Below, in pieces: positions 1 through 3,000 of a DNA stretch of 64,000 nt (positions are counted from its first letter, which is position 1; the number at the start of each line of letters is the position of its first letter). The position numbers are program-made. The DNA is taken from the NCBI RefSeq assembly GCF_056746865.1, contig NZ_CM163382.1; one strand, given 5' to 3'.

Positions 1-3000
1 GAGCGATAACCCAGCGCACTATGCGGATGCCATTCGTTATAATGCTCGAACGCCTCTGCAAGGTTCTTTGCTGCCGTTAACCCGTCTGGTTTGGGCATGA
101 TACTGATGTAGTCACGCTTTATCGTTTTCACGAAGCTCTCTGCTATTCCGTTACTCTCCGGACTCCGCACCGCCGTGTTCTTCGGTTCAAGTCCCAACAT
201 CCGGGCGAACTGGCGTGTTTCATTAGCCCGGTAGCATGAACCATTATCCGTCAGCCACTCCACTGGAGACGACGGAAGATCGTTGCCGAAGCGGCGTTCC
301 ACCGCTCCTGGCATGACGTCCTGTACTGTTTCACTGTTGAAGCCGCCGGTAGTGACCGCCCAGTGCAGTGCCTCACGATCACAGCAGTCCAGCGCGAACG
401 TGACACGCAGTCTCTCTCCGTTATCACAGCAGAACTCGAACCCGTCAGAGCACCATCGCTGATTGCTTTCTTTCACGGCCACTCTGCCAGTATGTGCCCG
501 TTTCGATGGCGGTACAGCGGTTTTTCGCTCAAGCAACAGCGCATTCTGGCGCATGATCCGGTAAACACGTTTGGCATTGATCGCAGGCATACCATCAAGT
601 TCGGCCTGTCTGCGAAGCAGCGCCCATACCCGACGATAACCATACGTGGGCAGCTCTCCGATAACATGGTGTATACGGAGAAGCACATCCGTATCATCTG
701 AGTGACGGCTGCGGCGACCATCTTTCCAGTCATCGGTTCGTCTGAGAATTACGTGCAACTGCGCACGCGACACCCGGAGACAACGGCTGACTAAGCTTAC
801 TCCCCATCCCCGGGCAATAAGGGCGCGTGCGCTATCCACTTTTTTGCACGCCCGTATTCAACGGCTTCTTTAAGGAGTTCATTTTCCATCGTTTTTTTGC
901 CGAGCAGGCGCTGGAGTTCTTTAATCTGCTTCATGGCAGCAGCAAGTTCAGAGGCAGGAACGACCTGCTCTCCTGCGGCCACAGCAGTAAGACTTCCCTC
1001 CTGGTATTGCTTGCGCCAGAGAAATAACTGGCTGGCTGCCACACCGTGTTGCCGGGCAACAAGGGAGACCGTCATTCCCGGTTCAAAACTCTGCTGAACA
1101 ATAGCGATCTTTTCCTGTGTAGTACGCCGTCTGCGTTTCTCCGGTCCTAAGACATCAATCATCTGCTCTCCAATGACTAGTCTAAAAACTAGTATTAAGA
1201 CTATCACTTATTTAAGTGATATTGGTTGTCTGGAGATTCATGGGGCCAGTCTAGCAGATTATGGTGCGCAGTTATACAACAGCAGTAATGAGGAGTCTAC
1301 TATTTCTCTTGTTATGCCAGATGCAATTGAATGGAACGGAAAGAATACGCCAAGACGGCAATACATGATAAAATATATTGCCGTATTTAAATATTAAAAT
1401 TTATTTTTGTAGATCATCTGAATTTTCGGTGACCTTCAAGTTTTATATCGTTCATTTTATCCAGAGACTCACGTAATGATTCTATATTCCCGTCCTCAAC
1501 TTTCTTTTTTGCAATATTGATTTCATGTTGTAGTTTTTTTAACTCTTCCTTATAACTATCTACAGAAACTTTATCATTAACATCTATCTTTTCAGGAATA
1601 ATATTCATAGAAGAATCTACAGATTTATCCATCATTTCAAGAGCATTTAATAGTGATGATTTATCATTGGAAGATTGTAGAATACTCATACTTTTGGCAA
1701 GAGACTGCATGTTTTTATCCAGGCCGGAAGCCAAAGATACGTTGCTGAGAGATAAAAAAATAGCTAGTACAGCACCTGAGAAAAATACCTTTTGTTTTTT
1801 CATTAATATATTCCTGTTCAAAGTTGATTATAGTTATGTCAATTTAAGTTTATTATTATGATTTTTTATTTTTGTACTATGAATCTCCTGTATGCTTATA
1901 TGTGCAGAAAATCTCATTTTATCAAGAAGAATATCAAATTTTCTCCGATACTTCTACATACTCCATCATTCATGCTCCTTTTATCCGTGCACCGTAAAAC
2001 CCCGTCCTTCAGCGGGGGATATAAGGCGCTGTTTTCCACCTAACCAGGTGTCTGCTGCTATTCAATGTATTGGCGGATGACGGATGCCGCCCGTTGAAGC
2101 AGGACCCCTCGTCCTTAGGGCGTGGAGGATGTCAAAATGAAAACTTGTGGTATGAATCAATCCATTCATCATCCTTTCGGATCATTGCATTCAGTATAAC
2201 GCTGGGTAATGACTCCAACTTATTGATAGTGTTTTATGTTCAGATAATGCCCGATGACTTTGTCATGCAGCTCCACCGATTTTGAGAACGACAGCGACTT
2301 CCGTCCCAGCCGTGCCAGGTGCTGCCTCAGATTCAGGTTATGCCGCTCAATTCGCTGCGTATATCGCTTGCTGATTACGTGCAGCTTTCCCTTCAGGCGG
2401 GATTCATACAGCGGCCAGCCATCCGTCATCCATATCACCACGTCAAAGGGTGACAGCAGGCTCATAAGACGCCCCAGCGTCGCCATAGTGCGTTCACCGA
2501 ATACGTGCGCAACAACCGTCTTCCGGAGACTGTCATACGCGTAAAACAGCCAGCGCTGGCGCGATTTAGCCCCGACATAGCCCCACTGTTCGTCCATTTC
2601 CTCGCAGACGATGACGTCACTGCCCGGCTGTATGCGCGAGGTTACCGACTGCGGCCTGAGTTTTTTAAGTGACGTAAAATCGTGTTGAGGCCAACGCCCA
2701 TAATGCGTGCACTGGCACGACATCCGACGCCATTCATGGCCATATCAATGATTTTCTGGTGCGTACCGGGTTGAGAGGCGGTGTAAGTGAACTGTAGTTG
2801 CCATGTTTTACGGCAATGAGAGCAGAGATAGCGCTGATGTCCGGCAGTGCTTTTGCCGTTACGCACCACGCCTTCAGGAGCGGAGCAGGAAGGACATCTG
2901 ATGGAAATGGAAGCCACGCAAGCACCTTAAAATCACCATCATACACTAAATCAGTAAGTTGGCACCATTACCTGACCAAGCTTCCTCTATTGCGGCACCT

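Follow-up and report, generated by a model that had tools for sequence, protein, structure and literature searches.

A divergent cytochrome b562-family gene as probable cargo on AT-rich, plasmid-type DNA between IS2 and IS1

Introduction

Cytochrome b562 gives its name to a protein family that is among the best-studied of the small haem proteins, and yet its physiological role has, to our knowledge, never been established. One member is the chromosomally encoded CybC of E. coli (PDB 256b; Pfam PF07361), but b562-type genes are also found on plasmids. Among these plasmid proteins, the closest named relative of the one described here is L7018 of pO157 (45% identity over the full length), which has been detected in vivo and was found to be 6.3-fold more abundant in piglet gut (PMC3686733). 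A literature search on the role of b562, on katP together with b562 and on the plasmid gene yielded a single item, an entry for L7018 in a proteomics table.

Here, we describe a gene of this family in a stretch of 64,000 nucleotides from contig NZ_CM163382.1 (hereafter the window; positions count from its first letter). RefSeq already names the product 'cytochrome b562' (WP_029490539.1), and the complete genomes annotated in this way number well over 100. Because the databases already name the gene in this way, its identification is correct but ordinary, and in itself of little weight. What the locus does offer is a record of b562 genes on AT-rich plasmid DNA that form a subfamily clearly apart from chromosomal CybC, and, through a recurrent pairing of katP and b562 genes in its relatives, a simple and testable hypothesis for the function of a b562-type protein.

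Results

An AT-rich segment bounded by IS2 and IS1

The window opens within an IS2 element (1–1253, minus strand), whose terminal inverted repeat (…ggttgtctggagattcatggggccagtcta) ends at 1253 and whose outer end lies beyond the window. A complete IS1 (2205–2972, minus strand; opening ggtaatgactccaac…) follows, and the two elements enclose 951 bp. These boundaries were read from the sequence and coincide with the interval of the original prediction (1254–2204). In the identical copy NZ_CP054388.1, both elements carry the corresponding RefSeq annotation, IS2 as 'IS3-like element IS2 family transposase'.

The whole interval had been described as markedly AT-rich, which is accurate for positions 1254–1984 and inaccurate for the 220 bp to their right. 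At 30.5% GC, 1254–1984 is the lowest of all 731-bp windows in the 64 kb (mean 0.479, sd 0.053); the corresponding values are 47.9% (whole window), 53.2% (IS2), and 52.6% (IS1). This AT-rich stretch comprises the b562 coding sequence (31.5% GC), its 3' flank (1254–1413, minus strand; 33.8%) and its upstream region (1804–1984, minus strand; 25.4%). The last 220 bp differ in composition: 1985–2135 is a separate entity of 57% GC, a miniature IS200/IS605 relic (see below), while 2136–2204 is a plasmid-type tail that, on plasmids, continues into the 3' end of a LysR-family gene and is here cut by IS1.

Among 5426 complete E. coli genomes, 138 carry the 951 bp with at least 95% identity, and 143 of the 146 matching records are at least 99% identical. 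The places where the segment occurs are mostly on plasmids (250, against 20 on chromosomes), and all 86 plasmids with the segment are predicted to be conjugative. The IS2 junction (IS2/gcagattatgg) is shared with conjugative plasmids; it is identical in pLH50-c-A (locus L002), where ISEc8 truncates IS2. Past the IS1 junction point, on the other side, plasmid sequence runs differently, into the LysR gene, and IS1 itself has no 9-bp target duplication (ataacgctg and tgaccaagc at its two sides). The recurrence of the same 951 bp in other contexts, on conjugative plasmids, together with these features of the IS1 junction, bears out the earlier suggestion of cargo trapped between IS elements. A composite transposon, either IS1–IS1 or IS2-based, was considered and rejected, as the flanking elements differ and there is no target duplication. 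The surrounding island consists largely of IS debris and pseudogenes, and the segment is an example of IS2, IS1, and a decayed IS200/IS605 element bringing plasmid DNA into a tRNA-Phe island.

The b562 gene and its signals

A single open reading frame of 135 codons had been proposed for the segment. The frame is present, but that length is obtained only when it is read from an upstream TTG (1414–1821, minus strand). The ATG at 1803 is most likely the start codon, because AGGA (1815–1812) sits 8 nt 5' of it, every homologue has the N-terminus MKKQK, and RefSeq calls the same form; the coding sequence (1414–1803, minus strand) then specifies 129 residues and ends with TGA (1416–1414). No support was found for other frames of at least 40 aa in the segment, and a 74-aa frame (1173–1397) that begins within IS2 had no match in a Pfam search. 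A promoter scan returned fewer promoter-like sites than in shuffled sequences, with the site at 1883–1855 no better than chance, and a terminator scan returned a single weak terminator-like hairpin (1360–1348, minus strand).

Comparison with a 66%-identical plasmid allele gives a dN/dS of 0.21 (dN 0.214, dS 1.03), which shows purifying selection on the gene in the past. The near-identity of the segment across the 138 genomes is a matter of recent spread and is uninformative on selection acting on the window allele. The frame is intact in nearly all copies, and both the Shine-Dalgarno sequence and the signal peptide are intact in the window gene.

Family membership, haem ligands, and predicted fold

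The product matches the family profile (PF07361, Cytochrom_B562) at 55.7 bits (cutoff 30; E = 8.3e-15), over essentially the whole profile (positions 2–102 of 102). In a search of the PDB with the window protein as a single sequence, cytochrome b562 is the sole match, with the Met and His aligned, and a profile of the plasmid subfamily built without CybC likewise retrieves cytochrome b562 only (E = 1e-07). Alignment shows that both haem ligands are kept: Met32 and His125 of the precursor correspond to Met7 and His102 of CybC, and are the predicted axial ligands in helix 1 (Met32, mature Met7; codon 1708–1710, minus strand) and helix 4 (His125, mature His100; codon 1429–1431, minus strand). These two residues and P70 are the only invariant columns among 26 diverse family members. 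The histidine lies in H-R-K-F-R, where CybC has H-Q-K-Y-R, and the C-terminal motif H-x-K-[FY]-R is conserved. There is no Cys in the mature protein, and because this leaves no CXXCH, a non-covalently bound haem b is implied.

A Sec-type leader is recognized by inspection (codons 1729–1803, minus strand; MKKQKVFFSGAVLAIFLSLSNVSLA / SG…), with a basic n-region (MKKQK) that leads into a hydrophobic core and with positions −3 and −1 occupied by small residues (SLA/SG), and it aligns with the signal peptide of CybC. Cleavage at SLA/SG would leave a mature protein of 104 aa with the ligand Met at position 7, as in CybC. An AF2 model (pLDDT 84), in which the leader is disordered (pLDDT below 50 for residues 1–22), has helices at 24–44, 48–66, 78–103, and 107–128. 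Foldseek matches of this model in the PDB are, at the top, all b562 structures, with target TM-scores of 0.90–0.91 and rmsd of 1.3–1.4 Å over 104 columns; among them is E. coli cytochrome b562 (256b), on which the bundle superposes with a target TM-score of 0.90 and an rmsd of 1.3 Å. A four-helix-bundle fold as in cytochrome b562 is thus predicted. The original prediction of a secreted, four-helix, cytochrome b562-like protein is supported by profile score, ligands, leader, and modelled fold alike, and judged by its sequence, the protein is a divergent, plasmid-type member of the family.

It is not, however, an orthologue of CybC. Against the NCBIfam equivalog model for CybC (NF011632/PRK15058), it scores 66 bits with a cutoff of 130, and its identity to CybC is 22%; we therefore exclude orthology and class the protein as a divergent paralogue. 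In the alignment, Phe61, Phe65, Arg98, and Tyr105 of CybC, all haem-pocket residues, are replaced by Tyr, Leu, Lys, and Phe, respectively. The properties of the two proteins may differ.

Gene neighbourhoods of the plasmid relatives

In three more distant relatives, the b562 gene is located 39–54 bp downstream of a gene for a KatP-type catalase-peroxidase with a signal peptide, a linkage present in pO157, at locus L006, and at loci L015–L017. The contigs of P0064 and P0067, at about 1 kb each, end too close to the gene to show its neighbours. This arrangement is absent at the window gene, and a tblastn search of the 64-kb window with KatP found no match; because there is no katP in the window, its copy is an orphan. 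Nor does any other obvious redox partner occur close to the gene. The pairing in the relatives suggests that the ancestral role was electron transfer to a periplasmic KatP-type peroxidase.

On the other side, an autotransporter gene follows the b562 gene in three diverged arrangements (espP on pO157, loci L007–L010, and L002). Between L002 and L007, the autotransporters are 94% identical and the b562 alleles 66%, and similarity breaks in the intergenic region, so the adjacency is a mosaic and not co-evolved. Nucleotide similarity between the window and the 66% alleles (L007, L010) covers only the gene and about 50–65 bp upstream, ending at about 1869. This is too confined for a simple deletion to link the window allele to the PhoX–b562 arrangement, and that derivation was rejected.

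A miniature IS200/IS605 element upstream of the gene

By BLAST and alignment, positions 1985–2135 (plus strand) are an internally deleted, miniature IS200/IS605-family element of 151 bp. Its left end (about 1985–2089) holds the last tnpA codons, joined to the last tnpB bases and the right end, which closes …GGATGTCAA, i.e. TCAA. A full-length element in AP026466.1 (locus L003), with homologous left and right ends, served as comparison: 1978–2085 is 89% identical to its left end, and 2086–2135 matches its tnpB 3' end and right end. The genes of that element score 143 bits for Y1_Tnp, 112 bits for OrfB_IS605, and 86 bits for the Cas12f1-like TNB domain. Of these genes, the window retains the last 8 or so codons of tnpA and about 20–50 nt of the tnpB 3' end, and the miniature element, which lacks transposase genes of its own, is not autonomous. 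The flank TTAC, as in IS608-type elements, precedes the full copy and a second miniature copy found on plasmids, and TTAT precedes the window copy. Hairpins at the left end (CCCCG…CGGGG) and the right end (CCTCG…GGAGG) are no more stable than in shuffles (z = +0.4 and −0.6).

The complete miniature element is found in as many genomes as the b562 segment (138) and occurs only alongside it; for this reason, 1985–2135 is a remnant, or no more than a non-autonomous element with two copies. A spreading MITE was considered and rejected: the left-end piece matches 1369 plasmids and 4387 E. coli genomes, and beyond the 138 genomes with complete copies, these thousands of matches are left ends of resident full-length elements. 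Also rejected was a known RNA (riboswitch, group II intron domain, CsrB-like RNA, or transposon RNA) in the GC-normal, hairpin-rich stretch 1985–2204, as its hairpins are IS200/IS605 ends; an Rfam scan of 1100–3300 at permissive thresholds gave one chance match, inside IS1. On plasmids, two directly repeated miniature elements bracket an 8.6-kb cluster of LysR, carbamate-kinase, and FdrA genes, which TnpA acting in trans might move.

Discussion

We consider it probable, at roughly 0.85, that the segment holds an intact b562-family gene for an exported haem-b electron carrier, acquired horizontally and now cargo in a chromosomal island. Sec would export the precursor, with cleavage following Ala25, and the 104-residue mature protein would bind one haem b non-covalently through Met7 in helix 1 and His100 in helix 4, acting as a soluble periplasmic one-electron carrier. 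The gene and its AT-rich flanks (1254–1984) would be the horizontally acquired part, bounded 3' by IS2, at the junction shared with conjugative plasmids, and 5' by the dead 151-bp IS200/IS605 derivative. This cargo would have been carried into the island associated with tRNA-Phe (pheV), with IS1 marking the other break.

The gene could instead be an intact but silent passenger, one that H-NS represses, that is of no use to this host, and that persists solely by hitch-hiking with the island, plasmids, and IS elements, a possibility that we regard as real but on balance doubtful. E. coli DNA of such AT-richness is often silenced by H-NS, and the GC content here is 25–31% in a host of roughly 50%. 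Silence would also be in keeping with a promoter-like site no better than chance, with separation from the katP that accompanies the relatives, with an island made up mostly of IS debris and pseudogenes, and with presence in so few of the genomes. It is harder to reconcile with a frame that is intact in nearly all copies, with past purifying selection relative to the 66% allele, with the intact Shine-Dalgarno sequence and signal peptide, and with the pO157 relative being made as a protein in vivo.

A more specific proposal, which we hold to be tentative and rather improbable, is that plasmid-type b562 proteins are electron or haem donors of KatP and that, separately, the pair of miniature IS605 elements lets TnpA move the 8.6-kb cluster in trans. 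L7018 and the window protein may then belong, with their relatives, to a distinct subfamily that was ancestrally a dedicated periplasmic donor of KatP, whether of electrons or of haem, and the window orphan may serve another periplasmic enzyme or be decaying. If true, cytochrome b562 would gain a concrete and testable partner.

Alternatively, the protein might bind haem and serve in the periplasm as a buffer, chaperone, or scavenger of it in place of carrying electrons, for example by supplying haem to exported KatP. The recurrent site just downstream of a periplasmic haem enzyme would suit a donor of haem as well as one of electrons, and such a role would also be in line with haem that is non-covalently held for want of Cys, and with a family whose role the literature search did not reveal. 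Met/His six-coordinate ligation is, however, typical of electron-transfer cytochromes, and both ligands are strictly conserved, which makes this alternative unlikely. A four-helix protein that binds no haem and has an unrelated job, perhaps tied to the downstream autotransporter on plasmids, might be read from the low identity to CybC and from the three arrangements with autotransporter genes, but it is highly improbable given the conservation of both ligands and of the H-x-K-[FY]-R motif and the mosaic nature of that adjacency.

An exported b562-type electron carrier on mobile DNA thus remains the preferred reading, and the locus can be set against the described systems accordingly. As in CybC, a periplasmic-type precursor with a cleavable leader is predicted, the mature length is about 104–106 residues in an antiparallel four-helix bundle (predicted for the window protein), the ligands are Met7 and a C-terminal His, and Cys is absent. 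By contrast with CybC, the window protein has two residues fewer in the helix 2–3 loop, and its gene is on AT-rich mobile DNA and not at the chromosomal cybC locus.

The miniature element shares homologous ends and the TCAA right end with IS605-type members of the IS200/IS605 family, which have divergent tnpA and tnpB; unlike a full element of about 1.75 kb, it measures 151 bp and has neither gene.

The plasmid proteins are closer. The 66–82%-identical alleles on E. coli and Klebsiella plasmids (e.g. P0049, P0036, P0032, and P0033) belong to the same subfamily and are named 'cytochrome b562' by NCBI, and on plasmids, both the window-type and the 66% alleles precede the gene for an autotransporter of 1165 aa, with 94% identity between the two lineages. 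Ahead of the 66% allele, unlike that of the window, are PhoX and an 88-aa frame, and not the miniature IS605 element and LysR. With L7018, the window protein shares a length of 129 aa, a signal peptide and four-helix layout, the Met and His positions, and a gene on mobile DNA, which on pO157 is followed by an autotransporter gene (espP). The L7018 gene, however, is 47 bp downstream of katP, whereas the window gene has no katP and is preceded by the miniature IS605 element and, on plasmids, also by the LysR gene.

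A plasmid-type cytochrome b562 between IS2 and IS1

The gene lying between IS2 and IS1 (1414–1803, minus strand) encodes a member of the cytochrome b562 family. The protein scores 55.7 bits over the entire Pfam Cytochrom_B562 profile (gathering cutoff 30), and a PDB search with the single sequence returned cytochrome b562 chains only, as did a plasmid-subfamily profile from which CybC, the soluble cytochrome b562 of E. coli, was left out (E = 1e-07). Both haem ligands are present: Met32 and His125 of the precursor align onto Met7 and His102 of CybC, and among 26 aligned family members, chosen from the hits of an exhaustive HMMER search through 1.84 billion representatives, the only three invariant columns are the ligand Met, the ligand His, and one Pro. 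The inferred signal cleavage site (SLA|SG) leaves a mature protein of 104 residues without cysteine and puts the ligand Met at mature position 7, exactly as in CybC. An AlphaFold2 model has four helices and a disordered leader (pLDDT 84, i.e. confident), and Foldseek superposes it on experimental structures of cytochrome b562, 256b among them (target TM-score 0.90–0.91, rmsd 1.3–1.4 Å). The original prediction, a secreted b562-like protein with a four-helix-bundle-like composition, to be checked by profile search and ligand alignment, is thus borne out by the profile, ligand, export, and fold results alike.

The predicted length needs correction. The open reading frame exists, and reaches 135 aa (1414–1821, minus strand) when counted from a TTG, but translation almost certainly begins with the ATG at 1803, because AGGA lies 8 nt upstream, every homologue begins with MKKQK, and RefSeq calls the 129-aa form.

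With only 22% identity to CybC, and a score of 66 bits where the NCBIfam equivalog model requires 130, the protein is a paralogue rather than a CybC orthologue. Its subfamily is AT-rich and found only on mobile DNA of E. coli, Klebsiella, and a few other enterobacteria. NCBI names all alleles at 98, 82, 72, and 66% identity cytochrome b562; the gene is already annotated as such in public databases and the family is well known, so novelty is nil. Approximately 490 pO157-like plasmids carry a form 44–46% identical to the window protein, and the pO157 form has been detected at the protein level, its abundance being 6.3-fold higher in the piglet gut than in culture (PMC3686733). Comparison of the window allele with the 66% allele gives a dN/dS of 0.21, showing past purifying selection on the family.

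Composition of the segment and an internally deleted IS200/IS605 element

As read from the sequence, the terminal repeat of IS2 closes at 1253 and IS1 occupies 2205–2972; both elements are likewise annotated by RefSeq in NZ_CP054388.1, a chromosomal copy identical to this one. Base composition varies across the 951 bp that separate them. GC content is 33.8% in the 3′ flank of the gene (1254–1413), 31.5% in the coding sequence, and 25.4% in the upstream region (1804–1984). Together these (1254–1984, 30.5%) have the lowest GC among 731-bp windows of the 64 kb (mean 47.9%, sd 5.3%). The AT-rich label therefore holds for this part and fails for the right-hand 220 bp, a separate entity made of a 57% GC block (1985–2135) and a 36% GC tail (2136–2204).

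The GC-rich block and its hairpins reflect a 151-bp mini-IS605 element (1985–2135, plus strand), in which a left and a right end persist while tnpA and tnpB are lost. Plasmid AP026466.1 holds a full-length IS200/IS605 element that encodes a Y1 transposase and TnpB; 1978–2085 is 89% identical to the left end of this element, and 2086–2135 matches its last tnpB bases and right end. Only the last codons of tnpA remain, TTAT flanks the left end, and GTCAA closes the right end. By sequence comparison, the mini-element is an internal-deletion derivative of such an IS. It lies 181 bp from the b562 start codon, on the upstream side. Its hairpins are no more stable than those of shuffled sequence, and an Rfam scan found no known RNA. 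In AP026466.1 (2778–5108), the full-length IS605-type element sits between a RelE-family toxin gene and a downstream small gene, and a further fragment like its left end occurs at 5122–5168.

Because full-length relatives are common, the left-end part alone matches 1369 plasmids and 4387 E. coli genomes. The mini-element in complete form is found in 138 genomes, as many as carry the b562 segment. The plasmids carry two copies in direct orientation (in pLH50-c-A, NZ_CP100501.1, at 10735–10884 and 19424–19570), the second being 96% identical and preceded by TTAC. The 8.6 kb between them encode LysR, cytosine permease, carbamate kinase, DUF1116, FdrA, DUF2877, and cysteine hydrolase, a block that might be mobilised by TnpA provided in trans.

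Distribution and genomic setting

The view of the gene as cargo between IS elements is supported by recurrence of the same 951 bp. Of 5426 complete E. coli genomes, 138 carry them at identity of at least 95% (250 sites on plasmids, 20 on chromosomes), with at least 99% in 143 of the 146 matching records. They are also present in 86 PLSDB plasmids, every one predicted to be conjugative and many of poultry origin. A composite transposon is rejected since the flanking elements, IS2 and IS1, are unlike.

The same junction (IS2 end | gcagattatgg) occurs in pLH50-c-A and the window, although the plasmid IS2 has been reduced to ~110 bp by ISEc8 (9895–10000 vs. 1140–1253 in the window), so the IS2 insertion predates the plasmid/chromosome split. 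Beyond the other end, the plasmid continues into a LysR gene, which is frameshifted, and a cytosine permease/carbamate kinase/FdrA/DUF1116 cluster, and in the window IS1 interrupts 69 bp past the mini-element. The 9-bp flanks of this IS1 show no duplication (ataacgctg vs. tgaccaagc), so it marks a rearrangement rather than a simple insertion.

The window represents an island associated with tRNA-Phe (40671–40746, minus strand); in a related strain, 1517k, the island is crowded with IS fragments and pseudogenes. Positions 1–9706 are collinear with that strain, and 30710–40794 correspond to its integrase, sugar-utilisation, and porin end, inverted. Relative to the tRNA-Phe/integrase/sugar-utilisation end, the block with b562, IS1, and RelB, up to type I restriction-modification genes, is inverted, and ~20 kb separates the two. 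The boundary (30299–31068) contains a nest of IS fragments, namely a 66-bp IS1 end, an IS2 fragment (~230 bp seen in the window), and IS1 positions 352–768; in 1517k, the same 66-bp end (10608–10669) abuts the complete b562-flanking IS2. This loss of collinearity, with IS1 and IS2 pieces at the boundary, suggests an IS-mediated inversion or insertion between the strains.

A 168-aa protein encoded at 3181–3687 (plus strand) begins with a RelB/DinJ antitoxin domain (Pfam 24.5 bits), its C-terminal half being uncharacterised; no adjoining toxin gene was seen. A type I restriction-modification M subunit follows directly (3754–5733, plus strand), and in the related strain S and R subunits come after it. 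The 1517k island also carries a PhoX-family gene ~25 kb from b562 (34577–36556; 659 aa), equal in length to the PhoX preceding the 66% allele on plasmids, a hint that the island has taken up several parts of a single plasmid type.

Plasmid neighbours of the b562 gene

On plasmids, the 66% allele is preceded by PhoX and an 88-aa ORF and followed by a 1165-aa autotransporter, and the window-type allele sits before an autotransporter 94% identical to it (pLH50-c-A, 2469–5966, vs. the 66% lineage, L007, 7106–10603). The 250 bp upstream of these autotransporters are 97% identical, whereas the b562 genes are only 66% identical. Similarity ends in the intergenic region, the site of IS2, ISEc8, and IS3. 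This pattern indicates a recombination breakpoint there, and the b562-autotransporter adjacency is mosaic.

More distant relatives keep a two-gene order, in which a signal-peptide KatP-type catalase-peroxidase gene is followed after 39–54 bp by a b562-family gene. On pO157 (2741–5384), katP precedes L7018 (45% identity to the window protein) by 47 bp, with espP downstream. In locus L006 (2749–5390; b562 43% identical), the upstream protein is 87% identical to KatP, has a signal peptide, and the gap is 39 bp; in L015–L017 (1755–4375; b562 27% identical), it is 75% identical and the gap is 54 bp. With KatP homologues at 75–87% identity and the adjoining b562 proteins at 27–45%, the pair is conserved while its b562 member diverges fast. 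katP is absent from the 64-kb window. The window protein would act as a periplasmic haem-b electron carrier, with an exported catalase-peroxidase as its probable ancestral partner, and this copy may be an orphan of that pair. The katP-b562 pairing on pO157 and its relatives, a lead from outside the window, offers a hypothesis, open to testing, about which protein is the physiological partner of such cytochromes.
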